From NCBI RefSeq assembly GCF_001545095.1, contig NZ_CP013213.1, positions 330,001-362,000 on the forward strand: 32,000 nucleotides of DNA, in the 5' to 3' direction. Both the position numbers and the translations under genes were made by a program. Positions 6,757-30,872 of this stretch are shown here, piece after piece. The number at the start of each line of letters is the position of its first letter. The first letter of the stretch is position 1. This DNA comes from Erysipelothrix larvae. GTDB lineage: Bacteria > Bacillota_I > Bacilli_A > Erysipelotrichales > Erysipelotrichaceae. Under the pieces are notes generated by a model that worked only from the letters and a program-made list of their open reading frames with translations, searched no databases and was not told where the DNA came from.

Positions 6757-7371
6757 GTGTCGTATCATGATTTTGAAGCGCTCTATATGATTCGAAAAGG
6801 AAATTTTGAAGCAAAAGAAGGATTGGATTGTCGGTATAAATTACTCGTGTATAAAATGGCGAATGTTTACTTGATGAAGTATCATCTCTCAAACACAACA
6901 CTCCATGATGCACGACAAGCAGGATTTATGGGGTATGAAAAGAGCATTCGAAACTATGATGCAAGCCGATTAACGGGGCTTGCACATTTTGTCAAGCTCA
7001 CGGTAATTGATCACATACGAACATCCATTCGAACACACATATCCCTCAAAGGTATGATGAATCACTATGCAGTGTCCTTGGATAGTACAATCAGTGAAGA
7101 CGGGAAACTGGATTATCATGATGTAATCGCAAGTGAAAATCGTTCCTTTTGTCCGGAAACCTATACCTATATCAAAGAAGTGGATCATGAAATGAGTTAT
7201 ATGTTTAAAAGCACCATCACAGATACAGAACGGCGTATATTCGTTATGAAAGCACAAGGGTATGCCTATAAAGAAATTGCGCAAACACTGGATCTCACAT
7301 CAAAACAAGTTGACAACATTCTCCAAAAATTAACCCGTAAAGTAGAGTTGTTTAAAGATTACATGAACTAA
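6757..7371 (+). CDS. sigH: Sigma-70 family RNA polymerase sigma factor, SigH-like by position
   Basis: GTG start 1 nt after the rlmB stop. Region 2-like segment (DARQAGFMGYEKSIRNYD ... FVKLTVIDHIR). Region 4 HTH YKEIAQTLDLTSKQVDNILQKLTRK. Lies immediately upstream of rpmG-secE-nusG, as in Bacillus. Confidence 0.7.
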   Translation: MSYHDFEALYMIRKGNFEAKEGLDCRYKLLVYKMANVYLMKYHLSNTTLHDARQAGFMGYEKSIRNYDASRLTGLAHFVKLTVIDHIRTSIRTHISLKGMMNHYAVSLDSTISEDGKLDYHDVIASENRSFCPETYTYIKEVDHEMSYMFKSTITDTERRIFVMKAQGYAYKEIAQTLDLTSKQVDNILQKLTRKVELFKDYMN

Positions 7372-7831: not shown

Positions 7832-8011
7832 ATGAAATGGTTTACACTAAGTGGTCTAAAAGAAGAAATTCGTAAAATTGAATGGCCTAAGCGTAAAGAG
7901 AATGTCTCGAATACGTTTACTGTTTTGGCTTTTGTGGGATTCTTTGCAGTATTCTTCATTGCAGCTGAGTTCTTAATTTCTGCATTCTTGAAAGTAGTAG
8001 GTGCATTCTAA
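7832..8011 (+). CDS. secE: Preprotein translocase subunit SecE
   Basis: ATG 7832 lies 8 nt after AGGAGG (7818-23). 59 aa with the KEEIRKIEWP motif and a single C-terminal TM helix. Synteny supports the call. Confidence 0.85.
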   Translation: MKWFTLSGLKEEIRKIEWPKRKENVSNTFTVLAFVGFFAVFFIAAEFLISAFLKVVGAF

Positions 8012-8015
8012 TATT

Positions 8016-8555
8016 ATGGAAGAAAAACTTTGGTATGTCGTAAACACTTACTCCGGTCATGAAAATAGAGTTAAAGAAAATCTAGAACGTCGTGTTGAAT
8101 CGATGGGAATTCAAGATTCTTTATTCAGAGTGTTGGTTGCAGAAGAAACAGTGATTGAATTTAATAAATCAGGTAAAAAAGTTGAGAAAATGCGTAATCT
8201 CTTCCCAGGGTATCTCTTTGTGGAAATGATTATGACCGATGAAGCGTGGTATGTTGTTCGAAATACACCCGGCGTAACCGGATTTATTGGATCATCAGGT
8301 GGTGGTGCGAAACCATTCCCTGTATCTCCAGAAGAAATCGAATCAATTCTACGTAGAATTGGTATGAGTGATAAGAAACTCGTGGTTGATTTTGGTGTGG
8401 GTGATCGCGTTAAAATCTTATCTGGACCTTTTAGTGGTTTAGATGGCGTGATTGATTCAATGAATGATGATGCACAAACAGCAATGGTACTTACAATCTT
8501 GTTTGGTCGTGAAACACCAACTGAGATATCATATACTGATTTGGAGAAACTATAG
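8016..8555 (+). CDS. nusG: Transcription termination/antitermination factor NusG
   Basis: Trimmed to MEEKLWYVVNTYSGHENRV (NGN domain). C-terminal KOW motif (GDRVKILSGPFSGLDGVI). Confidence 0.95.
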   Translation: MEEKLWYVVNTYSGHENRVKENLERRVESMGIQDSLFRVLVAEETVIEFNKSGKKVEKMRNLFPGYLFVEMIMTDEAWYVVRNTPGVTGFIGSSGGGAKPFPVSPEEIESILRRIGMSDKKLVVDFGVGDRVKILSGPFSGLDGVIDSMNDDAQTAMVLTILFGRETPTEISYTDLEKL

Positions 8556-8556
8556 G

Positions 8557-8580
8557 GAGCACGCTAATGTGCTCTTTTTA
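8557..8580 (+). terminator. Intrinsic terminator after nusG
   Basis: GAGCAC gctaat GTGCTC followed by TTTTT, starting 2 nt after the stop codon. Confidence 0.6.
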
Positions 8581-8613
8581 CTTTGTTTTCTTGTGTGAAG
8601 CAAGTACTATATG

Positions 8614-8642
8614 TTGCACACAAGAGTAAAGGATTCTATAAT
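8614..8642 (+). promoter_or_regulatory. Promoter of the mevalonate operon
   Basis: TTGCAC (8614-19), a 17-nt spacer, then TATAAT (8637-42). The 8-bp inverted repeat CTTGTGTG/CACACAAG (8590-8597/8617-8624) overlaps the -35. Confidence 0.5.
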
Positions 8643-8671
8643 TAGGATAGAAGTTATCGGAGTGTGATTAA

Positions 8672-9616
8672 ATGACAGTTGGACAAGGTATTGCTGGTGG
8701 CAAAATAATTTTAATGGGGGAGCATTCTGTTGTTTATGGGCAACCTGCAATTGCGTTACCTTTTTCTAAAGTTGCGATACAGTGTAGCGTTGATTTTATT
8801 CAAGGTGACAATACAGTAGATTGCGATTTTTATCATGGAAAACTCAATGAAGCACCCGTATTGCTTGAGGGTGTTCGTGCACTGGTTGAACGGACGATGA
8901 AAGAACTGGGCAAAGAGAATGATGGATTGCAATTAAGAATTGAATCAAACTTACCCGCCCAACGTGGATTGGGTTCAAGTGCCGCGGTTTCTGTCGCGGT
9001 TGTTCGTGCGTTATACGATGCGTTTAAAGTGGATTTAACCGAAGATGTTTTAACGGAATTGGTTGGGGTAGCGGAATCCATTTATCATGAAAGTCCAAGT
9101 GGTTTAGATGCAACGACCATCGCATCGGGAAAAGCCGTGTTTTTTGAGAAAAATCGAGGAAAGAAGTACTTACCAATGTCAATTGACGGAGTGCTTGTTG
9201 TTGCGGATACGGGTGTATTTGGACAAACCAAGCAAGCAGTCAGCTCTGTACGTACTCTATGGAATAATAATCCAGATCATATCAATCCAATCTTGGATCG
9301 TTTGGGAGAACTTACAATGCTTGCAAGCGAATGTCTTGAGACAAATGATAGTGTTATGCTTGGACGGACCATGAATGAAGCTCAAGCATTACTGCGACAA
9401 ATTGATGTCAGCGATGATCGTCTTGAGCATCTTGTTGAGGTTGCAATCGAAAGTGGTGCATTGGGCGCTAAACTGACAGGCGGTGGCAAAGGTGGGTGTA
9501 TGATTGCCTTATGCTCAACTTATGAAGCAGCAAATTATGTTTCACAAAAACTAAAAGAAGCAGGTGCTAGCAATACTTGGTTCTATGATTTAAAGGAGAT
9601 TGTTTCACATGAGTAA
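8672..9616 (+). CDS. mvk: Mevalonate kinase
   Basis: GHMP kinase motifs: GKIILMGEHSVVYGQPAIALP at the N-terminus, PAQRGLGSSAAVSVA (ATP-binding motif 2) and KLTGGGKGGCMIAL (motif 3). Confidence 0.9.
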   Translation: MTVGQGIAGGKIILMGEHSVVYGQPAIALPFSKVAIQCSVDFIQGDNTVDCDFYHGKLNEAPVLLEGVRALVERTMKELGKENDGLQLRIESNLPAQRGLGSSAAVSVAVVRALYDAFKVDLTEDVLTELVGVAESIYHESPSGLDATTIASGKAVFFEKNRGKKYLPMSIDGVLVVADTGVFGQTKQAVSSVRTLWNNNPDHINPILDRLGELTMLASECLETNDSVMLGRTMNEAQALLRQIDVSDDRLEHLVEVAIESGALGAKLTGGGKGGCMIALCSTYEAANYVSQKLKEAGASNTWFYDLKEIVSHE

Positions 9617-10550
9617 ACGCGTAAGAGCACACACTAATATCGCCTTGATTAAATACTGGGGTAAGAAAGATAAAGACTTGAGGTTGCCGTATAACTCAAG
9701 TCTTTCCTTAACATTGGATGGGTTTTATACCGAAACATCCGTGACCTACGATGATTCCTTAGATCACGATGTGTTCTATTTGGATGGCGTATACCAAGAC
9801 CAAGAAGAAGCACAACGTGTATTCTCTTTTATGCGTTTTCTGCGTTCGCGCTATGATTTACCACAAAAAGCGAAAATTGAGTCATGGAATCATGTGCCTA
9901 TGGCAGCAGGGCTTGCATCATCTGCGTCAGCATTTGCAGCGCTTGCGAAAGCCGCAACCCTTGATTTAGACCTCGATGATACCACACTTACCCGTCTGGC
10001 GCGCATGGGGTCAGGAAGTGCAAGTCGTTCTATTTATGGTGGATTTGTGAAGTGGGAACAGGGTGATGATGATCAAACAAGCATTGCCCATCCGATTGAT
10101 ATGAACCCTTGGGATGATATCCGGATGATCGTCTGTGTATTAAATTCGAAACAAAAACGTTTCTCAAGTTCAATGGCGATGGATAAGACAGTGGAAGAAT
10201 CCGTGTACTATGAAGGGTGGGTTAGGCAAAGTGAACGTGACCTTGTGAACTTAGAAAACGCCTTAAAAGCACATGATATTCATACGGTTGGGAAAATTTC
10301 CCAGGAAAATGCTTTGCGTATGCATGCTTCGCTAATGGCAGTGGGCCTGTGGTATTTTGAACCTGAAACCCTTGATATTATGAATCGAATTCGAGATCTA
10401 CAGGACAGTATTCCAGTGTACTTTACGATGGATGCTGGACCAAATGTAAAACTCATTACGACCCAAGAATATGTAGACGATGTATTAAAGGTCTTGAATG
10501 GAATTGAAGTTCATATCAGTAAACCTGGTCCAGGGGCATATGTCGTATGA
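9609..10550 (+). CDS. mvaD: Diphosphomevalonate decarboxylase
   Basis: ATG 9609 lies 10 nt after AAGGAG and overlaps the mvk end by 8 nt. Motifs: TNIALIKYWGKKD, MAAGLASSASAFAAL, GSGSASRS, FTMDAGPNV. Confidence 0.9.
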   Translation: MSKRVRAHTNIALIKYWGKKDKDLRLPYNSSLSLTLDGFYTETSVTYDDSLDHDVFYLDGVYQDQEEAQRVFSFMRFLRSRYDLPQKAKIESWNHVPMAAGLASSASAFAALAKAATLDLDLDDTTLTRLARMGSGSASRSIYGGFVKWEQGDDDQTSIAHPIDMNPWDDIRMIVCVLNSKQKRFSSSMAMDKTVEESVYYEGWVRQSERDLVNLENALKAHDIHTVGKISQENALRMHASLMAVGLWYFEPETLDIMNRIRDLQDSIPVYFTMDAGPNVKLITTQEYVDDVLKVLNGIEVHISKPGPGAYVV

Positions 10551-11515
10551 TTGAAGTTAAACACCCTGGAAAACTCTATGTGATGGGTGAGTACTCTGTA
10601 ATGCAACCTGGAAACAGTGCAGTGCTTATTGCGGTGAAACAAAAAATGATAACACGTATTGAAGCATCACCAGAGACACGCATTGAAACCCAATATGGGA
10701 CATTTCGACCACAACACAGTGATGAGAAATCATTGCGTTATGTTAAACAAGCGTATGAAGTCTGTGAAGCATATTTAAGGTTTAAACAGGTTTCATTCAA
10801 GCCATTTAAAATGAAGATTACCAGTACCCTTGATGTGGAAGGTAAGAAGTATGGATTTGGTTCAAGTGGTGTTGTGATTGTGAGTGTGTTGGATGCGATG
10901 CTTCACTATCATGCACTCAATGTGGATGCATTGACCCTGTTTAAACTGAGTGTATATACGCAATATTTGATGCATGAAATGAGTTCAGGTGGCGATATTG
11001 CGGTTGCCGTATATGGACAATCACTGGCCTATACGCGCTATGATACTGCGTGTGTGACTGCGGATATTCGGTGTGTTGAAATGGAATGGAATCAATTAAT
11101 GATCCAACCCCTAAAACTGGACGTTGATATCTTTGTGGGATGGACCCAATCCCCATATAAAACTCCCGATGCTTTGAATCATGCAAAAAGATTTGAAACA
11201 CTGTATCCGGATGCGTATGTGAAGCGTTGTGATGAGGCCCAAGAAATTGTGATGGGATTTATATCCAATCCACAAAACTTGAAGTATATTGATATGTATC
11301 GAGATTGGATGCGATCATTTCAAAAGTGGACGCATCAAGCGATTGAAACAGAACAGTTAACACATCTCATCCAAAGTGCACAAGATTGTGGCTTTGTTGC
11401 GAAAGTAAGTGGAGCAGGTGGTGGTGATTGTGGTATTGCCCTAGGTAGGGATCTTGATCCAACCCCTTTGTATCGTGAATGGGAAAAGCACGGGATTATT
11501 CCTGTGGAGATATAG
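10547..11515 (+). CDS. mvaK2: Phosphomevalonate kinase (GHMP type)
   Basis: ATGA overlap with mvaD. Motifs: GKLYVMGEYSVMQPGNSAV, KYGFGSSGVV, KVSGAGGGDCGIAL. Confidence 0.85.
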   Translation: MIEVKHPGKLYVMGEYSVMQPGNSAVLIAVKQKMITRIEASPETRIETQYGTFRPQHSDEKSLRYVKQAYEVCEAYLRFKQVSFKPFKMKITSTLDVEGKKYGFGSSGVVIVSVLDAMLHYHALNVDALTLFKLSVYTQYLMHEMSSGGDIAVAVYGQSLAYTRYDTACVTADIRCVEMEWNQLMIQPLKLDVDIFVGWTQSPYKTPDALNHAKRFETLYPDAYVKRCDEAQEIVMGFISNPQNLKYIDMYRDWMRSFQKWTHQAIETEQLTHLIQSAQDCGFVAKVSGAGGGDCGIALGRDLDPTPLYREWEKHGIIPVEI

Positions 11516-11523
11516 GAGGAATT

Positions 11524-12513
11524 ATGCGTTCAAAACGAAAAGACGAACATGTTGAGTTCGCATTAAAACAACCAGATCAAAAGAGTCCGTTTGAATCCAT
11601 GCGATTGAAACAAAACAGTTTACCCGAAATCGATGTAGCCGATGTTGATTTAAGTGCAACCTACTTAGGGCATTCTTTTGCTGTTCCGTTTTATATCAAT
11701 GCCATGACAGGAGGCAGTGAGAAAACAAAAGAAATCAATCGCAAGTTAGCGTTGATTGCGAAGAAGTATGGTCTTGCGATGGCAGTTGGGTCGCAACATG
11801 CAGCCCTTGATGATGCATCACTTCGATCGTCGTATGCGATTGTTCGTGAAGTCAATCCGGATGGATTTATTATGGGAAATGTAAATTGTAATGCGACACT
11901 TGAAGATGCACAACGTGCCATTGAGATGATCAAAGCAGATGCACTTCAAATTCATATTAATGTTGCCCAAGAACTCACAATGCGTGAAGGGGATCGCACC
12001 TTTAGACATTGGATTTCTCATATCGAACAAATTGTTGCAGGTGTGGATGTTCCGGTGCTTGTGAAAGAAGTTGGGAATGGTATGGATCGTGAGTCTGTAC
12101 GAAAACTCATTGAAATTGGCGTAAAAAGTGTGGATGTTTCAGGGCGAGGTGGGACCAACTTTATTTGGATTGAAGACAGTCGAAATGAAAAACCACGGTA
12201 TGATTACCTCAAAGACTGGGGCATGAGCACCCTTGAATCACTACTGGATAATCAAGTAAATATGCATGATGTTGAGTTTCTTGCATCAGGAGGTGTTAAA
12301 ACACCGCTGGATGTCATTAAATGTCTAGTGTTGGGTGCTCACGGTGTGGGAATTTCTAAAATGTTCTTAGATTTAGCAGTTCATGATGATATGGATCTGG
12401 ATGGGTTTATTGAAGACTTAAAACATATTATGGTGATGTTGAATAAACGCACACTATCCGAATTGACTACCGTACACTATGTATGCGAAGACATACAATG
12501 GAGACACTCATGA
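11524..12513 (+). CDS. fni: Type 2 isopentenyl-diphosphate delta-isomerase (FMN-dependent)
   Basis: ATG 11524 follows AGGAGGA. Motifs: INAMTGGS, VGSQ, VKEVGNGM, SGRGGTNF, ASGG. Last gene of the lower mevalonate block. Confidence 0.9.
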   Translation: MRSKRKDEHVEFALKQPDQKSPFESMRLKQNSLPEIDVADVDLSATYLGHSFAVPFYINAMTGGSEKTKEINRKLALIAKKYGLAMAVGSQHAALDDASLRSSYAIVREVNPDGFIMGNVNCNATLEDAQRAIEMIKADALQIHINVAQELTMREGDRTFRHWISHIEQIVAGVDVPVLVKEVGNGMDRESVRKLIEIGVKSVDVSGRGGTNFIWIEDSRNEKPRYDYLKDWGMSTLESLLDNQVNMHDVEFLASGGVKTPLDVIKCLVLGAHGVGISKMFLDLAVHDDMDLDGFIEDLKHIMVMLNKRTLSELTTVHYVCEDIQWRHS

Positions 12514-14895: not shown

Positions 14896-14922
14896 AGATA
14901 CACACAACATCATGAAATAATG

Positions 14923-14957
14923 ATACCTGTAACAGAAATTTGTTACAGGTATTTTTA
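14923..14957 (+). terminator. Strong intrinsic terminator after the permease gene
   Basis: Perfect 12-bp stem ATACCTGTAACA gaaatt TGTTACAGGTAT, followed by TTTT. Confidence 0.85.
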
Positions 14958-15112: not shown

Positions 15113-15141
15113 TTGTGGTATGAATAAATTTATTTTATAAT
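15113..15141 (+). promoter_or_regulatory. Candidate promoter of the SipW/TasA-like operon
   Basis: TTGTGG (15113-18), a 17-nt spacer, then TATAAT (15136-41). Lies in a roughly 200-nt AT-rich spacer that carries the direct repeats AATCTAATT / AATCTAACT (15067-15089). Confidence 0.4.
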
Positions 15142-15165
15142 GGGGGCGTTAAAGGGGGATTGTCT

Positions 15166-15828
15166 ATGAAAGATAATACAAAGAAAAAGAGTTTAGCACT
15201 CTTTATTAGTTTATGTTCATTATTTATTTTCGCTGGATCACTTGTAGCGTACTTCAGCGATAAGGTAACTGGAGAGGCAAGCATTACAGCAGGTACGTTG
15301 GATATCGATGGTACTTATGAACTCTACTATAATGGTAGTGAAGAGAAAGTGCCGGATAACAAGCTCTTAAACTTTAATCCAGGGGATTATGTTGTAGTAA
15401 AAGCGAGCTTCACAAACGGAGGAACAAAGAGTGCATGGATTCGTAATTCAATCGGATTAACCGGGGGACTTGCTGAACTCACTACAGGTGAAGGGACACC
15501 AGTAATTTTAGTATATGAAGGAGAAGTTACCTCTAATTTTACACCTCAAAATGCAAAGAATCTAACATCAAACTCTTATATTTCTGGGACGAAGGTTATT
15601 GAAGGTTCAGCGGAAAAAGAACCTGAAGTTAACGGAGTCGAAAAATATGAAGTAACATACACAATTTACTTTAGTCCAGATGCTGGCAATAATGCACAAA
15701 GAAAGGATTTAGAACTAACTCTTCAAACTGAAGCTTTACAGTATAGAAATAATAAAGATATATCAGGAGATGATGCTTGGAAAAAAGTACAAGAGTATGT
15801 AGCTGACACAAATGTAGTTGAACCATAG
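15166..15828 (+). CDS. TasA/camelysin-family secreted protein with a SipW-type signal peptide (putative major fibre subunit)
   Basis: ATG 15166 lies 7 nt after AAGGGGGA. The signal is K-rich, then hydrophobic, then the VAYFSDKVTGEASITAGTLDI motif. The NFNPGDYVVVKASFTNGG and C-terminal AGNNAQRKDLELTLQTEALQYRNN segments parallel B. subtilis TasA (NLKPGDKLTKDFQFENNG; NKYQGNSIKLQFSFEATQWNG, recalled from memory). Confidence 0.8.
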   Translation: MKDNTKKKSLALFISLCSLFIFAGSLVAYFSDKVTGEASITAGTLDIDGTYELYYNGSEEKVPDNKLLNFNPGDYVVVKASFTNGGTKSAWIRNSIGLTGGLAELTTGEGTPVILVYEGEVTSNFTPQNAKNLTSNSYISGTKVIEGSAEKEPEVNGVEKYEVTYTIYFSPDAGNNAQRKDLELTLQTEALQYRNNKDISGDDAWKKVQEYVADTNVVEP

Positions 15829-15835
15829 TATCTAT

Positions 15836-16438
15836 ATGAGAGCATTAGTGGCAACATTCATTTGTTTGTTCACGCCAATCTCAGTGATTGATCTTAATCG
15901 TGCATTTGAAAATCAAAATGCAGTTTTACTTGAAATAAACGTTGATGATGTCCATCCAGGTACGTCATCAACGTTTACCTATGAGTTTGATAATACAATG
16001 GACTTTGAGGTCAGTCTCTATTTGATAAAGGTAGAAACAACAAACAACAATGAATTAACAAAAAACATTGTTTTAAGAATGTCTCAAAGTTCTATGGAGT
16101 TAGACCATAACGGAACTGAAATGAATCTATTAATTGCGACAATTGATAAAGGAGACCGCGTAAAAGTTGATTTTGAATACTCGATTGATCCACATGCTGG
16201 CAATGAAATACAAGGGTTATCAGAAACCTATCAACTTGAATTTATGATTTTTAATGGCGATTTGGACTTGCCTGATACAGGAAATCCAGACGTTGAATTA
16301 CCAACGCCCAATCCACCACTCATATTACCAAGTACAGGACTTGAAGGAGACAATCGTTGGCCAGTTATTGCGCTGGGAGGGGTGTTAATGGGAATCGCTC
16401 TTCTACTTAAGGAAAGGGATGATGAAGATGAAACATAA
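15836..16438 (+). CDS. TasA-like domain protein with a C-terminal LPSTG cell-wall sorting-type signal (putative anchor subunit)
   Basis: The start is uncertain: ATG 15836 lies 8 nt after the upstream stop and has no SD. Hydrophobic N-terminus plus RAFENQNAVLLEINV. DVHPGTSSTFTYEFDN and AGNEIQGLSETYQLEFMIFNGD match the TasA pattern. A Pro-rich linker leads to LPSTG (16325-16339), then a hydrophobic stretch VIALGGVLMGIALLL, then the tail KERDDEDET. Confidence 0.65.
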   Translation: MRALVATFICLFTPISVIDLNRAFENQNAVLLEINVDDVHPGTSSTFTYEFDNTMDFEVSLYLIKVETTNNNELTKNIVLRMSQSSMELDHNGTEMNLLIATIDKGDRVKVDFEYSIDPHAGNEIQGLSETYQLEFMIFNGDLDLPDTGNPDVELPTPNPPLILPSTGLEGDNRWPVIALGGVLMGIALLLKERDDEDET

Positions 16439-16946
16439 AATAATCGCGAATACAGTTCTAGTTTTATCAGTAATTTTACTTGTGCTAGCACTGTATTTTT
16501 CTTTTGTAAAAAAGGACAATGAAGAGATGTTTTTCTTTGGGTACAAACCGTTCATCATAACATCAGGATCAATGGAACCAAAGTATCCAGTAAATTCACT
16601 GGTGGTTGTGAAAAAAGTCGATGCATCAACCTTACAAGTCGGTGACGAAATTGCATTTTATAGTCATTTAATCAACGCAAACGTCTTCCACCGTATTGTG
16701 GATATCGATGATCAAGGATTTGTGACAAAAGGGGATAACAATAAGAATGCGGATCTTGAAATTGTTGAGACCATTGATGTATTAGGTAAAGCTGTGTTTT
16801 ACACTACTTTGACCACATCCATCATCGCTCATTTTAATTCACCACTTCATGTTGTACTGTATGGTGTTGTACCTGTATGTTCACTATATATTGGGGTGCA
16901 TTTTTTTGTTCGATATCGTAAAGAGAAACGGGGTGTGATCCAATGA
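16419..16946 (+). CDS. sipW: Signal peptidase I, SipW (ER/archaeal, Ser-His) type
   Basis: SGSMEP (catalytic Ser), FHRIVDID (His) and KGDNN motifs, with N- and C-terminal TM helices as in B. subtilis SipW. Alternative ATG starts at 16419, 16422 and 16428 follow AAGGAAAGGG. Overlaps the previous gene by up to 20 nt. Confidence 0.85.
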   Translation: MMKMKHKIIANTVLVLSVILLVLALYFSFVKKDNEEMFFFGYKPFIITSGSMEPKYPVNSLVVVKKVDASTLQVGDEIAFYSHLINANVFHRIVDIDDQGFVTKGDNNKNADLEIVETIDVLGKAVFYTTLTTSIIAHFNSPLHVVLYGVVPVCSLYIGVHFFVRYRKEKRGVIQ

Positions 16947-19270
16947 AACGTTTTGAAGTTCGTGCTTTTATCATCGGATGTATCCTAACGTGCCTTACGG
17001 TATTCATATCTCCAATTTCAGGGTTATTAAGTGATGTGGTTTCTCAATCCTTTAATATCAGTGCTTCAAAGATCCAAATCGAAGTCACGGACTTTAAGGT
17101 TAAACAAAACACCAAAACGTATCCTTTGGGTACTGATAGTCAGTTTGAGCCAACATTGATTCAAAATGAAGTGATGGGTATTGAATTTACTCTTAATAAC
17201 TCATCACCCTTTGATGTAGACGTTGAGGGCACCATCGAGTTATCCTTTGTGAACGAAGCAAATGAGACTCAGATTGTAACGCTGTATACGGGTGAAACGA
17301 AAGATGCTTCCATTAAAGCAGGCGAACTCAATGGCTTGATCATAGGAGAACAGGATCTTGATACTCAAGAATTATCAGCGACTTCGAACAATCGAACAGG
17401 TATTTCAAAGCAAGTCCTCGCTGACACTTTAACAACCAAAGATGGACTTGGTGAAGGGTTTAAATCAAAACGTTACACGTATAAACTGTATTTGGATGGG
17501 AATAACGTGGATAAAGAAACACTCATCAGCACAATAAAGGGTAACAAAATTGGGGTTGCGGTCAATGTTTTGGCATCACCTCAAAACAAACAGTCAACTT
17601 GGCAATCATCAGTTTCTACCTATGGTGAAATCAAAACGGGTGTTTTAAGGTCGCTCACATTCAATCTTACGGGTGATAATCCACTGTATGTATCAAAAGA
17701 CGATTCATATCTTGAACCAGGATGGGTTGCACAGGATGAGTATGATGATCCAGTATCGGTGGATGTTAGTGGTCAAGTTGAACCAAGCAAAATTGGGGAA
17801 TATACACTGGAGTACACTGCGAATTATTATGGTGAATTGCATAAGCTTAGTCGAACGGTTATTGTTACAGACCGTAAAAAGCCAGTCCTAAGACCTTATG
17901 TGGAAAATCCGAGAAAGTTTGTATCAGAGACAATTGATCTACGATCGTTTGTCCTTGTTGATGATGGACTCGCTGAACCAAATCTTAAGGATAAAATTGT
18001 CATTACAACACCATCAGATTATGATCCGATGAAACCAGGAAAATATAATATTTGCTACAATGTTACCAATGACATCGGTATGAAAGCAGATGAACTCTGC
18101 ATTAATCTTACGGTTTATGCATACAAAGAGATTGCACCAATGTATGACACAACAATTGCTCTTTCCACGGATGGTCATGTCTATAGCTGGGGCTTATCAT
18201 CAAATGGAGAAACTGGAAGAAACACAACAACTACACAATCTACACCGGGTGAAATCAGCGAACTGAGTGAGTATGAAGTGGTTAAAATAGATGGCGGAAG
18301 GAATTTTGGAATGGCGCTAACAGCTGATAATCGTATCTTTATATGGGGCAATGATTTTTTCGAAGGTGGTGGCGTTCAAGGTAATGGTGTGAAATTCATA
18401 AACAACTATGTTCCTAAAGAGCTTGTCGTGATGGATGGTTCAAAAGTAAAGTTTGTTCAAATATCCTGTGGTCGAAATACAGCTGCAGCATTGAGTGAAA
18501 ATGGCGTTGTATATACTTGGGGTGATGGAAACGATTACGCAAGCGGTCAAAACACGACTAATAGTATCTATGAACCAAAAGTGTTAAATATTGTAGGTAA
18601 TCCAACCATTAAGTTTGTTAACTTGGGTGTTAGGAATGGAGTTGCAATCGATACTGAAGATAACGTTTATTTTTGGGGACAAAATGGGTTAGGTGTCAAT
18701 AACAATGGAAGTGATGTTCGTGTACCTACCAATGTGAATGAAAAGCTTCGAAATATTAACGTTGATTCAAATATTGAAGCTACAGGTATTCCAAATATTA
18801 AAGAAATTTCATTAGGGACTGATCATGGATATATCCTTATGAATGACGGAAGGTTATATGCATGGGGGGAAAATGATCTTGGACAACTGGGGAATAACAC
18901 GAGAATGAGTGTTTCTCCAAAAGACCGTGTACCACAAATCATGACTGGATTTGGCGACTTCATTGATAAAGTTGAAGCGGGCGAGAATTATGGTGTTGCA
19001 CTGGATAGAAATGGAATAGCGTATGTTTGGGGATACAGTGCATTTGGATCTATTGGTGTATCAAATGGTACAGTACTCAAAACTCCTACCATCAAGAACC
19101 CAGCTGGTGGAAGGAAAATTACAAGCATCGGAGCATACTATGCAACGACTGGTCTTATCACAGAAGACGGATATCTGTATATGTCTGGAAGTAATGACTT
19201 CGGTGAGTTAGGAATTGGAAAAACTTCAGGTAATTCTTATGAATTTGTTAAAACACTCCACCCAGAATAA
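16943..19270 (+). CDS. Large secreted multidomain protein: SipW-type signal, TasA-like module, two Ig-like (DUF5011-like) domains and a 7-blade RCC1 beta-propeller
   Basis: ATGA overlap with sipW. The N-terminus has a hydrophobic helix followed by GLLSDVVSQSFNISASKIQIEV. Residues about 35-225 are beta-rich and end in LDGNNVDKE...VAVNVLASPQNKQ. Residues about 236-393 form two repeats of about 78 aa of the G.Y.L.Y.A...V.V.D type. Residues about 394-775 carry seven RCC1-like repeats (GHVYSWG, NRIFIWG, GVVYTWG, DNVYFWG, GRLYAWGENDLGQLG, GIAYVWG, GYLYMSGSNDFGELG). Confidence 0.8.
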   Translation: MKRFEVRAFIIGCILTCLTVFISPISGLLSDVVSQSFNISASKIQIEVTDFKVKQNTKTYPLGTDSQFEPTLIQNEVMGIEFTLNNSSPFDVDVEGTIELSFVNEANETQIVTLYTGETKDASIKAGELNGLIIGEQDLDTQELSATSNNRTGISKQVLADTLTTKDGLGEGFKSKRYTYKLYLDGNNVDKETLISTIKGNKIGVAVNVLASPQNKQSTWQSSVSTYGEIKTGVLRSLTFNLTGDNPLYVSKDDSYLEPGWVAQDEYDDPVSVDVSGQVEPSKIGEYTLEYTANYYGELHKLSRTVIVTDRKKPVLRPYVENPRKFVSETIDLRSFVLVDDGLAEPNLKDKIVITTPSDYDPMKPGKYNICYNVTNDIGMKADELCINLTVYAYKEIAPMYDTTIALSTDGHVYSWGLSSNGETGRNTTTTQSTPGEISELSEYEVVKIDGGRNFGMALTADNRIFIWGNDFFEGGGVQGNGVKFINNYVPKELVVMDGSKVKFVQISCGRNTAAALSENGVVYTWGDGNDYASGQNTTNSIYEPKVLNIVGNPTIKFVNLGVRNGVAIDTEDNVYFWGQNGLGVNNNGSDVRVPTNVNEKLRNINVDSNIEATGIPNIKEISLGTDHGYILMNDGRLYAWGENDLGQLGNNTRMSVSPKDRVPQIMTGFGDFIDKVEAGENYGVALDRNGIAYVWGYSAFGSIGVSNGTVLKTPTIKNPAGGRKITSIGAYYATTGLITEDGYLYMSGSNDFGELGIGKTSGNSYEFVKTLHPE

Positions 19271-19397
19271 GCTCATGGTGAAAAAGAAAGTACAGCGTTT
19301 TAGTGATGCTGTTAAGTAAGTAAAAACCAAGTTAGTGGATTAAACAGGTTCTAAGGTCAAGAACATAGTTTAGACAGAAGAGAATATTTTCTATGCC

Positions 19398-19436
19398 AAA
19401 AGAGGTACTATCACGAATCAGTGACAGTACCTCTTT
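19398..19436. terminator. Hairpin between the convergent RCC1-protein gene and mutY
   Basis: AAAGAGGTACTaTCAC gaatca GTGAcAGTACCTCTTT gives 15 bp with one A/C mismatch. The U-tracts are short on both strands. Confidence 0.55.
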
Positions 19437-19612: not shown

Positions 19613-20611
19613 TCACTGACTTGGTTTTATTTGCTCTAAATGAGCGATGAGAATTTTCTTATGCGCGGTAATCATTGCCTTTGAATTGACTTCATTAAGA
19701 TCCATAAGATGCCAGTTTTCATTGGCAGAAGTAGCTTCACTTAAGGGATGAACGTGGATATCCCATTCTAGGTGTGAGAATTTGTGTTTGAGTGTGAGAA
19801 GGGGCGGTGTGTCTTGATGACCATCAGTCATGGGTAAACGAAGTAAACCTTTCATCAATCCGTCACTGTCATCGGTTGATACTAAGAGGGAATGATTCTG
19901 TTGATAATACCAAACAGTTTTCTTAAAAGAAGGGACTTTCTTTGCTTTTGGAATATAAGGGATTTGTCCGATGTTTTCACCTCGATACCCTGCACACATT
20001 TCTTTAAAAGGACTGCCAACACATAAAGTGTTTGAAGGTGTATAGACCAAGGCACCCAGTTCCATCATGGCTTGATTAAAGTCACTTGGATTGGCTTTGC
20101 TTTCAATCAGTTCTTTCTTTAAAAAGGATTCAAAAACTTTATGTGCTTTTCGTGCGTTTACATTCTCAGTATAGTTTAAATAGCGTGCCATCACCCGTTT
20201 CACATTTCCATCAATGACGATTTCGGGTTGGTCAAAGGCGATGGATGCGATTGCGCTGGATGTATAATCCCCAATGCCTGGGATCAATAGAAGTTCTTCT
20301 TTCGTAGAAGGGATGATGCCATTGAAGTGTTCCATGACAAAAAGCGCGCCTTTGTGTAAGTTTCGAGCGCGGTTATAATATCCCAATCCCTCCCAATGTT
20401 TGAGGACATCATTGATATCTGCAGCTGCGAGTGTGCTCACATCTGGAAATGATTCAATCCATCGATTGTAATAGGGGATCATGGTTGCGATTTGTGTTTG
20501 CTGGGCCATAATCTCACTGACCCAAATGTGATAGGGGTCTTTTGAGGCGCGAAAGGGTAAGTCTCGCTTGTTTTCATGATACCAGTTTAAGAGTCTTTTC
20601 GTAAATTCCAT
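19613..20611 (-). CDS. mutY: A/G-specific adenine DNA glycosylase MutY (Fe-S ligand set incomplete)
   Basis: Trimmed to MEFTKRLLNWYHENKRDLPFR. HhH-GPD core with the catalytic-Glu motif VSEIMAQQTQ and the Asp motif VIDGNVKRV. The C-terminal NUDIX-like domain is present. The TTG/GTG extension in the ORF track has no SD. Confidence 0.9.
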   Translation of the reverse strand: MEFTKRLLNWYHENKRDLPFRASKDPYHIWVSEIMAQQTQIATMIPYYNRWIESFPDVSTLAAADINDVLKHWEGLGYYNRARNLHKGALFVMEHFNGIIPSTKEELLLIPGIGDYTSSAIASIAFDQPEIVIDGNVKRVMARYLNYTENVNARKAHKVFESFLKKELIESKANPSDFNQAMMELGALVYTPSNTLCVGSPFKEMCAGYRGENIGQIPYIPKAKKVPSFKKTVWYYQQNHSLLVSTDDSDGLMKGLLRLPMTDGHQDTPPLLTLKHKFSHLEWDIHVHPLSEATSANENWHLMDLNEVNSKAMITAHKKILIAHLEQIKPSQ

Positions 20612-20627
20612 AAATGTATTATACACC

Positions 20628-20660
20628 AAAAAAAAGAAAAGGGGTGTGTGAGCCCTTTTC
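20628..20660 (-). terminator. Minus-strand intrinsic terminator immediately upstream of the mutY start
   Basis: On the minus strand: GAAAAGGG ctcacacac CCCTTTTC followed by T8. It sits 17 nt upstream of the mutY ATG. Confidence 0.5.
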
Positions 20661-20840: not shown

Positions 20841-22127
20841 ATGATGAAAAATAATGACGGAATTCAATTCTATGAGAAAAAAAGCATAAAAAAATTCTCG
20901 TTTATTCTCCAAATTTTATTTGGACTTTTTGTAATTGTGATTGGTATCTCCATCATAATGCGTGAAAATTTTTGGTGGTGGGTTGTGAAACTATTAATCC
21001 AAGCTTTATTAGTTGGTACGGTATTTACCTTCTTATTTCGTTCAATCACAAATCGAAACCGACTGGATCTTTTAATATCTTTTGGCTCATTAGGATTCTT
21101 TATTTATTCTCTTTTTAATGAGAACATCTTCATGGAATTCTTTTCATTGTTCTTTGGTGTATGGGCTTTGTTTAATGCAGCAGTTAGAGGTTTAGAGTTA
21201 TTTGTTTCTTTCCAAAGAAAACAGAAAGGGAAAATTGTGATTACCCTTGAGTTTTTAGCGGGATTTGTCATGGGGACTTCATTATTAGTGTCCGGGGCAG
21301 AATCTGCTTTCTTTGTAAACTTACAAGTTGGGATTTATCTAATCTTGCATGGCATCTTACAAATTGTGGATCTCTTTAGAGTGAATCTTGGTTCAGGGTA
21401 CACGTTGAGAATGCCAGCTCCGATATTCGCTACAGCGTTACTTCCAAGTTTCCTTGTGAAGAAAATTGAGCGAGAAGTCGCATTGAATCCAGATCTTGTA
21501 CTGGATACGGTTGAACCTACAATCGGGGATTATGTTTCAATTTATATCTATATCAAAGATTATGGATATAATCGCATGGGTCATATTGATATTGGATATA
21601 ATGGAGCAATCTATTCGTATGGGTGTCACGATCCGCTCAATCGGCATTCAACTCAAGCTTATGGTGATGGTGTGTTGATTGTAGGATCTGAGTGCGAATT
21701 TGTACAGTATAGTGTGGATGATAGTTCGACAGTATATCGGTTCTTGTGTAAACTCACACCACAACAACGGGATCGGATCGAAGAACGCATTGACTTGTTG
21801 ATGAAACCTGCCTACTACTATGATTATCCTTTGGATCATGAGAAGACGAAAGATTCATACTTAAAACATCTGAAAGATTCACAAGTGGGGGTTGATTATT
21901 ATAAATTTATCAGTGGACCCTTTAAGACATACAATGTCTTTACCACAAACTGCGTGCTTGTTGCGGAGTATATTGTACAATCTACTGGAATGCAGTTGTT
22001 CCATGTGAATGGAATTATTACACCTGGAACGTATTACTCTTATTTGCATAGTAATGTGGGAAGAGTGGGGTCAATTGTTGAGAAAGAATATATTTATAAG
22101 AAAATTGGAGCGAAACCCAAGTACTAA
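20841..22127 (+). CDS. Integral membrane protein with a C-terminal soluble domain of unknown function (His...Asn-Cys motif pair)
   Basis: About 6 hydrophobic helices occupy residues 20-205 and resemble HdeD/DUF308-type helices. The C-terminal 220 aa contain MGHIDIGYNGAIYSYG (His248) and YNVFTTNCVLVAEYIV (Cys371). Confidence 0.65.
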   Translation: MMKNNDGIQFYEKKSIKKFSFILQILFGLFVIVIGISIIMRENFWWWVVKLLIQALLVGTVFTFLFRSITNRNRLDLLISFGSLGFFIYSLFNENIFMEFFSLFFGVWALFNAAVRGLELFVSFQRKQKGKIVITLEFLAGFVMGTSLLVSGAESAFFVNLQVGIYLILHGILQIVDLFRVNLGSGYTLRMPAPIFATALLPSFLVKKIEREVALNPDLVLDTVEPTIGDYVSIYIYIKDYGYNRMGHIDIGYNGAIYSYGCHDPLNRHSTQAYGDGVLIVGSECEFVQYSVDDSSTVYRFLCKLTPQQRDRIEERIDLLMKPAYYYDYPLDHEKTKDSYLKHLKDSQVGVDYYKFISGPFKTYNVFTTNCVLVAEYIVQSTGMQLFHVNGIITPGTYYSYLHSNVGRVGSIVEKEYIYKKIGAKPKY

Positions 22128-23811: not shown

Positions 23812-23843
23812 AGCGGCACAACTTAGGAAGAGTGTGTCGCTTT
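23812..23843. terminator. Terminator between the convergent ABC-F gene and mvaA; stronger for mvaA
   Basis: AAGCGGCACA (23812-21) pairs with TGTGTCGCTT (23834-43), giving 10 bp with one G:U. The A8 run upstream becomes a U-tract for the minus-strand transcript. The hairpin overlaps the last mvaA codons. Confidence 0.6.
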
Positions 23844-25076
23844 GAGTTGTTCTAGACACGCTTTGGCAGTGTCTGAATTTAGATGGGGTTGTTTTAAGAG
23901 TAGGTGTACCAATGCTTCAACTTCAGTGGGTTTTGCACCTGCCTTTAAAGCCAGGTTACGTGCATGGAGTGCCATGTGTCCTTTTTGGATACCATCGGTT
24001 GTGAGCGCATAGATTGCGGCGAAGTTTTGCGCCAATGCAACACAGGCAATGCATTCCATTAAGGATTTCACATCATGAAACCCAAGAATCTCATAGGCAA
24101 GTTTTACTTTAGGGTTGAGTCCAATGCTTCCACCAACGCTGCCTAACGCTAATGGCAGGGTTGTTTCACCACAAATCATGCCTTCATCATTTAATGACCA
24201 GGTTGTGAAGGGTTCAAGCTGTCCGTTTCGTGAATGATAGCTGTATATGCCAGCATTGACCGCGCGCCAGTCATTGCCGGTTGCGATTAAGATTGCATCA
24301 ACACCATTCATGATACCTTTGTTGTGGGTAGCGGTTCTAAAGGGGTCAAGTTTAGACAAAAGGCTTGCTTCAGTAATCTTTTGACCAATGGTATCGCTGA
24401 ACTTTAAGGTTGATGGGTCAAGGGTGCAGTGTGCATGGACGAGGCATTCTGGCGTATTGTTTGTGAGAATCGCCATAAGGGCGTGTTCTTGGGTGTTTGT
24501 TTCAATGAGTGTTCTGAGGCTTTCTAAGATGGTGTTAATCATGTTAGCGCCCATTGCTTCTTGTGTGTCCACTAAGACATCCACAATCACAAGGGTGTTA
24601 TCGTCTTTGGTGATGTGTCGTGTCGTGATGGATTGAACCCCACCACCCCGTTTTATAATCGATGGGTGCGCCTGATGGGCGTTGTCAAAGAGTGCTTCTT
24701 GGTGTGTCTCAATGAAGTCTTGGATGGCTTGGGGATTGTTTGGATTCACAAAAGCAATCTCACCGCGCATGACACGGGAAATGACACTGCTTGTGAAGCC
24801 TCCATTTTGTTTAATGATATTTGCGGCATTACTTGAAGCGGCAATTACTGAGGGTTCTTCTGTGACCATCGGAATGACAATTTGTCTTCCATTAATACAA
24901 TAATTTGGCGAAACTCCCATTGGAAGTTCGAATGTTGTGATTGCATTTTCAATCATATTATTGTAGGTAGAAGCTGGAAGTGACCCAAAATAATCGGGGT
25001 TAATGTGCCGATCACGTTTTAGGATTTCCAAACGTTCTGCAATACTTTTTTTATAAAAACCTTTATACTGTGACAT
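23823..25076 (-). CDS. mvaA: Hydroxymethylglutaryl-CoA reductase, class II
   Basis: Trimmed to ATG 25076, which lies 6 nt after GAGGTGA. About 417 aa, as expected for class II enzymes. Conserved segments include EEPSVIAA, DAMGANMINT and GTVGG-like SVGGS. Confidence 0.9.
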   Translation of the reverse strand: MSQYKGFYKKSIAERLEILKRDRHINPDYFGSLPASTYNNMIENAITTFELPMGVSPNYCINGRQIVIPMVTEEPSVIAASSNAANIIKQNGGFTSSVISRVMRGEIAFVNPNNPQAIQDFIETHQEALFDNAHQAHPSIIKRGGGVQSITTRHITKDDNTLVIVDVLVDTQEAMGANMINTILESLRTLIETNTQEHALMAILTNNTPECLVHAHCTLDPSTLKFSDTIGQKITEASLLSKLDPFRTATHNKGIMNGVDAILIATGNDWRAVNAGIYSYHSRNGQLEPFTTWSLNDEGMICGETTLPLALGSVGGSIGLNPKVKLAYEILGFHDVKSLMECIACVALAQNFAAIYALTTDGIQKGHMALHARNLALKAGAKPTEVEALVHLLLKQPHLNSDTAKACLEQLKATHSS

Positions 25077-25194
25077 GTATTTCACCTCACTCTTAATCAT
25101 AGACGAAAAGTGATCAGAATGCTATAAGTTTGAAGTACATTGCGATGCATTCATGGGATTAAGCGTTATAATAGATGCAAGGGAGGTTTGAAAC

Positions 25195-30333: not shown

Positions 30334-30368
30334 TGATATAATAAGGAACAGTAGAGGGTGAGTTGTAT

Positions 30369-30872
30369 ATGGAAAAATTAGAAGTTAAAAAAATATTTCG
30401 ACGCATTGTATTGTTTGTGTTTCTTGGACACTTTGTCTTAAGTTTCATTCACTTACTTGTGTTTTATATGGGACATCCTCTGTTTGATATGCTCAATGAG
30501 TTTCCAATTTGGGTTCAAGTAGTGGGGGTATCCCTTTGGAACTTTATCGCATATGTAGTAGTGGGAATCATTTTGGGTGTGAACCGAGACGATCAACCCC
30601 TGTACTATTTATTGTTGGATCGTGCATTAATACTCTTAGCGTTGTTTTTAATCTTAGTATATGGTGCGATTTATATTTCAACCTATTGGTATACTTTACG
30701 AAATATATGGTTAATCTATAGTTTACTGAATGCGTTATTTGGTACGTATATGTACCGTCTTCCTACAGAAAGTATTCTGTCATTGTGGTGGGTTGTCTCA
30801 ACAATCGTCCCATCAATCGCAATGTTTGTGGGCGCTTTGATACGCATGCACTTTGAGGAGAAGAAATCATGA
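30369..30872 (+). CDS. Hypothetical integral membrane protein (about 5 TM)
   Basis: ATG lies 8 nt after GAGGGTGA. The sequence is strongly hydrophobic. I recognise no family. Confidence 0.55.
   Translation: MEKLEVKKIFRRIVLFVFLGHFVLSFIHLLVFYMGHPLFDMLNEFPIWVQVVGVSLWNFIAYVVVGIILGVNRDDQPLYYLLLDRALILLALFLILVYGAIYISTYWYTLRNIWLIYSLLNALFGTYMYRLPTESILSLWWVVSTIVPSIAMFVGALIRMHFEEKKS

Follow-up and report, generated by a model that had tools for sequence, protein, structure and literature searches.

In this study, we describe a compact operon of four genes on the chromosome of Erysipelothrix larvae (contig NZ_CP013213.1), which includes relatives of the Bacillus subtilis fibre protein TasA and a SipW-type signal peptidase. 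It lies within a stretch of 32 kb that was analysed as a whole (the window), and whose numbering is used throughout. Four close-packed open reading frames (ORFs), all on the plus strand, span 15166-19270 between two stable hairpins. P1 (15160/15166-15828, ATG at 15166, AOC36_01665) encodes 220 amino acids (aa), P2 (15818/15836-16438, ATG at 15836, AOC36_01670) 200 aa, P3 or sipW (16419-16946) 175 aa, and P4 (16943-19270, stop codon included) 775 aa. P2 and sipW overlap by 20 nucleotides (nt), and sipW and P4 share an ATGA, so that the layout reported in a first-pass annotation, a reading of this stretch made from the sequence alone, was recovered with both overlaps. The ATG of P1 is preceded by the Shine-Dalgarno sequence AAAGGGGGA at 15151-15159, and the ATG of P2 at 15836 agrees with the N-terminus of its paralogue.

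The 5′ boundary of the operon is the intrinsic terminator (14922-14953, plus strand; 14-bp stem and T-run) of a gene assigned by Pfam to the xanthine/uracil permease family, with a folding energy of -18.5 kcal/mol and z = -5.7 against shuffled sequence. A second hairpin, at 19398-19436, stands between the convergent P4 and mutY-like genes (-22.4 and -24.8 kcal/mol; z = -7.0 and -6.0 against shuffles). Both flanking terminator hairpins proposed earlier are thus real. The 3′ one is probably a bidirectional terminator, but since its U-tract is better on the minus strand and just three U follow it on the plus strand, it mainly serves the mutY-like gene (19613-20629) and is bidirectional at best. 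The operon had also been credited with a promoter of its own. A putative sigma-A promoter, read from the sequence, lies at 15113-15141 (plus strand), with a perfect -10 TATAAT (15136-15141), a 17-nt spacer and a -35 TTGTGG (15113-15118) that matches the consensus at only three of six positions, which is why it is absent from the list of the consensus scan; a sigma-A promoter ahead of P1 is plausible only. An Rfam search of the 5′ leader returned no family, the sole match, SSRC10 (26 bits against a cutoff of 56), being the terminator hairpin.

P1 (15166-15828, signal peptide aa 1-28) is a TasA/camelysin-family protein, as had been suggested, and is the predicted major subunit and shaft of a fibre. 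By itself it reaches PF12389 with 22.5 bits, exactly the Pfam gathering cutoff, and in its N-terminal part only; all 29 of the aligned P1 homologues match that family. A search of the PDB with the single P1 sequence found nothing. Over its whole length, the P1-family profile can be aligned with 8AUR and 5OF1, two structures of B. subtilis TasA (E about 1e-3), and the best Foldseek match in the PDB of the AlphaFold2 (AF2) model of P1, with a predicted local distance difference test score (pLDDT) of 87.7, is the TasA fibre subunit 8AUR_A (E = 3.3e-6).

Published structures show that residues 28-38 of TasA serve as a donor strand by which the following subunit is completed, and that F29, P62, F200 and Q232 constitute a "proline box" at the protomer interface, the most conserved part of the family (Roske et al., 2023). 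By the HMMER alignment, the counterparts of these four in P1 are F30, P72, F169 and Q192, all of them invariant in 29/29 family members. The predicted N-terminal donor-strand arm of P1, YFSDKVTGEASITAGTLDI (aa 29-47; 15250-15306, plus strand), aligns with TasA 28-47, that is, the donor strand and its linker. Moreover, the mature N-terminus (aa 27-46) is the sole disordered internal segment of the AF2 monomer model, as is expected of a donor arm. The match of P1 to the SipW-cognate signal model TIGR04088 is marginal (19.3 against a cutoff of 19). Judged from these alignments, P1 appears to carry both a donor strand and an acceptor interface. The Clostridium perfringens fibre protein BsaA, whose operon has been characterised, adds an N35-E56-K74 isopeptide lock between subunits. 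Such a lock was set aside for P1, as no N-E-K triad is conserved by position: the P1-family consensus holds no conserved N, E or K near the corresponding positions, a comparison made by numbering analogy only and not by alignment with BsaA. The family has other invariant residues, D32, K88 and E150.

P2 (15836-16438, plus strand) proved far more divergent. Neither Pfam nor NCBIfam models its domain, and apart from a borderline LPXTG match the two libraries returned no domain. The P1-family profile hidden Markov model (HMM) did not detect it (E > 8), word-indexed homology searches with P2 or a five-sequence P2 alignment returned only the inputs, and hhalign of five P2 sequences against the P1 family fell short of significance (P = 0.017). 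A P2 profile of three sequences, run exhaustively with HMMER, found 207 relatives at E <= 1e-3. Most of them have 190-240 aa and combine an ordinary signal peptide, in many cases with an AxA-type site, with PG[DF] and GN-x-YQG strands and an LPxTG or LPxTA at the C-terminus. A 100-sequence P2 profile matched the P1 family over 162 columns (hhalign probability 95.4%, E = 1.7e-8), and the alignment paired PG with PG and GNxxQ with GNxxQ, the two strands that the first-pass annotation had already recognised as common to P1 and P2. The P2-family HMM also matched P1-type proteins directly (E 1e-7 to 1e-12). In the AF2 model of P2 (pLDDT 82.7, core above 90) the fold is TasA-like as well: its top two matches among 350,542 PDB chains are the TasA structures 5OF2 and 5OF1 (Foldseek E = 3.6e-4, probability 1.0). 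On the strength of the profile-profile, reciprocal HMM and structural matches, we conclude that P2 is a remote TasA-fold homologue.

What P2 lacks is the donor strand. The F-S-D donor motif was found in none of 99 P2-family members by regular expression and in none of 100 in the HMM alignment. The N-terminal NRAFENQ of P2 is not conserved in its orthologues, contains no SipW-cognate motif and gives no match to TIGR04088; the orthologues mostly have AxA-type cleavage sites and are devoid of the F-S-D...AGTLD motif. Mature P2 starts about where the self-complementing strand of TasA (residues 48-61) starts, which means that the donor strand is missing. The predicted role of P2 is consequently that of an acceptor only.

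At its C-terminus, P2 bears a predicted cell-wall sorting signal (16325-16435), as had been noted, composed of the sortase-type motif LPSTG (aa 164-168; 16325-16339), a 17-aa hydrophobic segment (16358-16408) and a KER-acidic tail, basic and then acidic (16409-16435). The score against the LPXTG model TIGR01167 is 15.8, with a cutoff of 15.9. The motif is kept in orthologues as VPNTG, IPDTG, LPNTG or LANTG, a [LIV]PxT[GA] stands at the equivalent position in 72/99 P2-family members, and some relatives pass the LPXTG or LPxTATN models. LPXTG proteins are documented in Erysipelothrix rhusiopathiae: RspA, RspB and further ones with a sortase-substrate annotation. P2 would be a wall-anchored base. 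A second motif, LPDTG (aa 145-149; 16268-16282), lies upstream of LPSTG, and a 19-aa insertion relative to the orthologues (16268-16339) resembles a partial duplication of the sorting-motif region. In one related operon (L009, 7605-8123), the P2-like ORF ends right after VPNTGER, without a membrane segment.

P3 (16419-16946, plus strand) is a SipW-type (archaeal/ER-type) signal peptidase I, which bears out the earlier assignment. It scores 85.7 bits against TIGR02228 (cutoff 51.85) and 58.9 against the Bacillus SipW equivalog NF046067, where the cutoff is 190, indicating a SipW-like enzyme and not the orthologue of the B. subtilis protein. Its motifs SGSMEP, FHR and KGDNN contain the catalytic Ser, His and Asp signatures SM, HR and GDxN, invariant in 13/13 aligned homologues. 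As far as these motifs can tell, P3 is an active-type SipW peptidase.

P4 was expected to combine a TasA-like module, immunoglobulin (Ig)-like domains and a seven-blade RCC1 propeller, and all three were found. By profile comparison, its N-terminal module (aa 1-235; 16943-17647, signal peptide included) is TasA-like: the P1-family HMM matches about 190 residues there, with E = 3e-4 for the P4 of the window and 1e-9 for an orthologue, and a profile of five P4 orthologues aligns with the P1 family over 200 columns (hhalign 96.5%, E = 8e-10). The donor motif of this P4 is a degenerate LLSDVV that gives no match to TIGR04088, in contrast to the canonical YFSD...AG.VD of the orthologues. The SipW-substrate pattern attributed earlier to all three secreted proteins therefore stood marginally for P1 and, for P4, in its orthologues, and had to be given up for P2. 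The PGD, GNxxQ and Q192 interface motifs are missing from the P4 module. It is followed by two Bact_surface_Ig-like/DUF5011-type domains (about aa 236-394; 17648-18124; PF16403, E = 1.7e-16) and by the RCC1-like beta-propeller (aa 395-775; 18125-19270), a predicted distal binding domain with seven WG blade motifs, RCC1 and RCC1_2 repeats, and a WD40_RLD score of 232.7 bits against a cutoff of 150. As anticipated, none of the four proteins matched the TapA model TIGR04087. In sum, the profile searches proposed along with the first-pass annotation, extended to profile-profile comparison, gave TasA-family matches for P1, P2 and the P4 module, and the structure comparisons gave TasA-like folds for P1 and P2.

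When the three proteins are compared residue by residue, the interface motifs are distributed in a complementary manner. The F-S-D donor motif is present in 29/29 P1 proteins, in 0/100 P2-family members and in 9/11 P4-type proteins. PGD (TasA P62) together with GNxxQ is present in 29/29 P1 proteins and in at least 90% of the P2 family in its own alignment, and no intact motif was seen in the nine donor-bearing P4-type modules. An equivalent of Q192 (TasA Q232) exists in P1 only, with none in P2 or P4. We conclude that P2 and P4 are divergent, specialised relatives of TasA. In the TasA fibre, the interface brings together F29 of subunit n, Q232 of subunit n+1, and F200 and P62 of subunit n+2 (Roske et al., 2023). 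With this published geometry, a donor-only P4 and an acceptor-only P2 yield a chain P4 -> (P1)n -> P2, and since P2 is the sole carrier of a wall-sorting signal, the acceptor end would be proximal to the cell and the Ig-like and RCC1 passenger distal.

It is likely, in our opinion, that the operon encodes a TasA-type surface fibre which is assembled by donor-strand exchange and is covalently attached to the cell wall. In the mechanism that we propose, SipW (P3) would cut the signal peptides of P1 and P4, freeing an N-terminal F/L-S-D arm on each. P1, equipped with a donor arm and the full proline-box acceptor, would polymerise head to tail as the shaft. P2, which has the TasA fold with PG and GNxxQ and no donor arm, could only receive a strand and would occupy one end of the fibre, where a sortase encoded elsewhere in the genome would join its LPSTG end to peptidoglycan. 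P4 would donate its strand into the last P1, and as it is probably not extendable, its Ig-like stalk and RCC1 propeller would come to lie at the distal tip as a binding module. What we infer is that fibres form at all, in which order the subunits stand, that SipW cuts P1 and P4 and a sortase processes P2, and that the propeller acts as an adhesin.

The search for relatives, here designated by locus numbers (L), showed that the same four genes are syntenic in a second strain (L001) and occur with other flanks in Erysipelotrichaceae-like contigs (L003/L004 and L007). The survey of the exact four-gene architecture that had been called for thus found it in these loci; elsewhere the operon exists in three-gene or rearranged versions (L002, L008, L009). 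The order tasA-like, P2-like with [LV]PxTG, sipW is also found in Pseudolactococcus laudensis, a Streptosporangiales metagenome-assembled genome (MAG), four Saccharibacteria and a Nomurabacteria MAG. Large Ig and RCC1 proteins adjoin the module in three of the Saccharibacteria loci, and one of these proteins has a TasA-module match as well. E. larvae itself has a second locus, with a P1 paralogue (AOC36_09245, 49% identity) and a P2-like protein with LANTG (AOC36_09240).

Moreover, in seven loci from bacteria of the Candidate Phyla Radiation (CPR), an actinobacterial MAG and a Firmicute contig, the gene directly after the P2-like LPxTG gene encodes an archaeal-type SipW peptidase domain and a sortase domain in a single polypeptide (L013, 9300-11252; L014, 11588-12796; L018, 11585-12802; L019, 7711-8790; L020, 11476-12666; L022, 11578-12675; and L025, 8620-9687). 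Fusions of this Rosetta-stone kind would link processing by SipW with the step in which the sorting signal is recognised. The catalytic Cys (TLISC) and an intact His/Cys/Arg triad are retained in three of the seven (L014, L019 and L025), and we have tempered our use of the fusions as proof of catalysis, given that the other four are without the Cys; some of the fused sortase domains may just bind the signal. A faint sortase adjoining L009 was not confirmed by NCBIfam and was dropped. Taken together, the motif complementarity, the module conserved across phyla and the SipW-sortase fusions strengthen, as an inference, the proposal of base, shaft and tip first made for this locus. More tentatively, and with a little less than even confidence, we suggest that the locus represents a widespread, undescribed class of pili in Gram-positive and CPR bacteria, heteropolymers joined by donor-strand exchange in which three diverged TasA folds would share the work: a donor-only tip with adhesin passengers (Ig and RCC1, or others), a donor-plus-acceptor shaft and a sortase-linked, acceptor-only base. 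Processing and anchoring would be so closely coupled that SipW is fused in many lineages to a sortase, or to a pseudo-sortase binding the signal.

Among the relatives, the operon of Sediminibacillus albus (L024, 4930-8627) is instructive. It is of the classical Bacillaceae type: divergent sinI/sinR genes are followed by tasA, bona fide tapA and sipW genes and then by a P2-family protein with LPNTA, and the locus served as a positive control in which TapA (142 bits) and sinR/sinI were detected. TapA and an anchored, donor-less TasA-fold protein can therefore coexist in one operon. We rejected the view that P2 is a simple analogue or replacement of TapA, as TapA is donor-only, has an Ig fold and, in S. 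albus, is encoded alongside a P2-like protein. The coexistence raises the question of which of the two, TapA or the P2-like protein, is the actual fibre tether in such species.

Several other observations were made at related loci. Genes for Mga-family regulators (PF05043) come directly after the operon in L002 (6150-7634) and L008 (9918-11420), and in L002 a giant Collagen_bind/SpaA-type adhesin gene is next after the regulator. Beside tasA/sipW operons, L005 (946-3201) encodes a protein with six Ig-like domains and a P1-family HMM match (4e-36), and L023 (10034-11824) a 596-aa protein with a P1-family match. A protein of L019 (1958-6025, minus strand) starts with an FFSD donor motif and combines an Ig-like domain with an ALK/LTK glycine-rich domain. 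Proteins made of a TasA module and a passenger may be a general theme. The sipW of L003 (9352-9732; GCA_036820705.1) is N-terminally truncated relative to the otherwise identical Logan contig L004 (9234-9758), probably owing to a frameshift or an assembly error.

The comparison of the window with the near-identical strain of L001 (P1 at 8001-8648, P4 at 9763-12084) revealed that variation is concentrated in parts of two of the genes. Identity is 99-100% for the flanking genes, P2 and sipW (99.2-99.7% at the nucleotide level for the flanks), and outside one patch P4 is essentially identical as well. In contrast, P1 has 78% nucleotide and 68% amino-acid identity, with a synonymous divergence (dS) of 0.31 and a ratio of nonsynonymous to synonymous divergence (dN/dS) of 0.62, and P4 residues 401-550, which comprise RCC1 blades 1-3 (18143-18592), have 68-80% identity and a dS of 0.62. 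With dS at 0.01-0.05 in the flanks, the values of P1 and the P4 patch are 10-50 times higher, which points to imported alleles; the pattern has the appearance of recombination that replaced alleles in the exposed portions of P1 and P4. Within P1, codons 1-45, which encode the signal peptide and the donor arm, have dN = 0 with dS = 0.20, and the body of the protein has a dN/dS of about 0.74. This would fit a shaft and tip that are exposed and under selection, and an interface for assembly that is under constraint.

Not all of the evidence favours a wall-anchored fibre. P1 reaches PF12389 and TIGR04088 only at their cutoffs, and the kinship of P2 with P1, to which the P1 HMM was blind, is seen only at the profile-profile and fold level, the TM-scores of both models against TasA in Foldseek being low (0.35-0.40). 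The P4 of the window has L in place of the family F in its donor motif. The TIGR01167 score of P2 is just below the cutoff with a tail that is net acidic, no sortase is encoded within the window, and V, G, T or A replaces the catalytic Cys in four of the seven SipW-sortase fusions. Lastly, in C. perfringens strain 13 the BsaA polymers are anchored in the membrane and not in the wall, and srtB is dispensable.

It could be that polymerisation is confined to P1, which would form a matrix or surface fibre of the TasA kind. P2 and P4 would then be independent surface proteins that have an ancestral fold and the operon in common, P2 being a wall-anchored monomer and P4 a free or loosely held adhesin exported via SipW. 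The precedent of C. perfringens, in which BsaB was not incorporated into BsaA oligomers and BsaC is secreted separately, speaks for this arrangement, as do the failure of the P1 HMM to detect P2 and the absence of P2-like genes from the related operons L005, L008 and L010. It would leave unexplained why the loss of donor and acceptor motifs is complementary in P2 and P4, why the order tasA-P2-sipW is strictly kept across phyla, why P2 keeps the interface proline equivalent to P62 and P4-type proteins keep the F-S-D arm, and why the donor arm is invariant though the body of P1 varies. We regard this arrangement as unlikely.

An improbable variant is that P2 is no sortase substrate in E. larvae and stays in the membrane by its C-terminal helix, where it would anchor or nucleate the fibre, or that it acts as a cap limiting fibre length. 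The sub-cutoff TIGR01167 score and acidic tail, a window devoid of sortase genes, the membrane anchoring of BsaA oligomers and the lost Cys of the four fusions can all be read in this way. They have to be set against the recurrence of [LIV]PxT[GA] at the same position in 72/99 family members, the relatives that pass sorting-signal models, the intact SipW-sortase fusions adjoining P2-like genes, and the LPXTG surface proteins documented in the genus. We consider it very improbable that the polarity is reversed, with P4 nucleating at the cell surface, as has been proposed for TapA, and P2 distal, or that P4 is interspersed along the shaft. TapA, a donor-only initiator, has been reported to be cell-associated in B. 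subtilis; but it is P2 that has the wall-sorting signal, which places its end next to the cell if it is processed, P4 is without an anchor motif, and P4-type modules are without the interface residues needed for extension. That P1 is a secreted camelysin-type metalloprotease or an antimicrobial protein rather than a structural one, as the historical Peptidase_M73 annotation and the Pfam name "Camelysin metallo-endopeptidase" would have it, is hardly credible, since the family members of solved structure are fibre subunits with a jellyroll fold and are joined by donor-strand exchange, and the conserved residues of P1 form the fibre interface and no metal site. We retain the anchored fibre, with P4 at the tip, P1 as the shaft and P2 at the wall, as the preferred reading of the operon.

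It is established that TasA assembles by donor-strand exchange and that TapA has a donor-only role, and such exchange has a published precedent in BsaA too. The operon of E. larvae resembles tapA-sipW-tasA of B. subtilis in that a SipW-type peptidase stands beside a TasA-family subunit, in that the donor strand and proline box are kept in P1, and in having accessory subunits specialised for one end of the fibre. It differs in that TapA is absent, in that its proteins fall short of the equivalog models for SipW and TasA, in its predicted covalent wall link through the LPSTG of a donor-less TasA-fold protein, and in the Ig and RCC1 passengers borne by its donor-only component, P4. A regulator of the sinR/sinI type, whose presence had been raised as a question, was also not found within the 32 kb of the window, which contains no sortase or other regulator gene either. 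With sipW-bsaA-bsaB-bsaC and srtB of C. perfringens the operon shares SipW, at least two TasA-like paralogues and a large protein with a binding domain, which is vWA in BsaC and RCC1 here. The gene order is different, BsaC has not been reported to contain a TasA module, and the isopeptide lock of BsaA is not evident in the P1 family, by the numbering analogy given above.

Similarities with other pili are of a more general nature. Sortase pili share the logic of tip adhesin, shaft and wall-anchored base, the LPXTG anchoring and a genetic link between signal-peptidase-family proteins and sortases, as exemplified by SipA/LepA of Streptococcus pyogenes; their CnaB-type pilins are joined by sortase-made isopeptide bonds, whereas non-covalent strand insertion between TasA jellyrolls is predicted here, and SipA has lost the catalytic residues that the SipW of this operon keeps. 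Chaperone-usher pili (Fim/Pap), the structural analogy with which was pointed out by Roske et al. and Boehning et al., likewise use donor-strand exchange and terminal subunits with a single function, such as the acceptor-only tip adhesin FimH. The proteins are unrelated, there is no usher or chaperone here, and the polarity is inverted, the acceptor-only subunit being the predicted cell-proximal one. Archaeal bundling pili (AbpA) and Sulfolobus threads, which we compare by description, also consist of TasA-like or Ig-like subunits with donor-strand complementation; they belong to archaea, and neither a sortase-type anchor nor an RCC1 tip protein has so far been described in these fibres.

The idea of an anchored TasA-type operon has been foreshadowed. 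A preprint of 2024-25 described an LPXTG bsaB-like gene beside srtB in most C. perfringens strains and speculated that it anchors BsaA via SrtB. It further noted that sortases, signal peptidases and LPxTG proteins are often encoded in one operon with TasA/BsaA, and suggested donor-strand heteropolymers; it makes no mention of RCC1, CPR bacteria or Erysipelothrix. In addition, Bacillaceae members of the P2 family with LPXTG or LPxTA are already named "TasA family protein" by NCBI, so that the family assignment is partly in annotation pipelines. The statement of the first-pass annotation that no characterised example exists was thus right insofar as none has been studied experimentally, and overstated the novelty. 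We found no earlier account of an anchored family of TasA-fold proteins that lacks the donor strand and acts as a defined partner, of adhesins in which a donor-only TasA module bears Ig and RCC1 domains, of the motif complementarity of P1, P2 and P4, or of the SipW-sortase fusions.

The neighbourhood of the operon is of a housekeeping nature, with genes for glycogen phosphorylase, cysS, nusG, the mevalonate pathway, a PHP phosphatase and the permease upstream, and with the convergent mutY-like gene, an ATP-binding cassette (ABC) ATPase, 3-hydroxy-3-methylglutaryl-coenzyme A (HMG-CoA) reductase, ldh, typA, tgt and queA downstream. The mevalonate genes (8672-12513), just upstream of the operon, comprise GHMP kinases, diphosphomevalonate decarboxylase and an FMN-dependent dehydrogenase-family gene that may encode a type-2 isopentenyl diphosphate isomerase. 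HMG-CoA reductase (23823-25100, minus strand) is separate from this cluster, about 4.5 kb downstream of the operon. At E <= 1e-5, Pfam gave no match for three ORFs of the window, 6757-7371, 20841-22127 and 30363-30872 (204, 428 and 169 aa); the longest of the three products, with 428 aa, resembles a membrane protein of the multi-pass type to which a soluble domain is appended.

TasA fibres are the model scaffold of Gram-positive biofilms, and their attachment to the cell and the existence of dedicated adhesins are unsettled. The locus described here and its relatives suggest a third route by which Gram-positive bacteria could build a pilus, apart from the type IV and sortase kinds; it would use donor-strand exchange to polymerise and a sortase only for the link to the wall, and would display a modular tip. 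From the complementarity of the motifs follow simple, testable predictions as to the subunit that caps each end. How the cleavage of signal peptides is coordinated with anchoring could be approached through the SipW-sortase fusions, also in CPR episymbionts, for which surface attachment is central. The hypervariable shaft and propeller blades point to selection on the fibre by the host or by phages in this bacterium of the beetle-larva gut, a relative of the pathogen E. rhusiopathiae.

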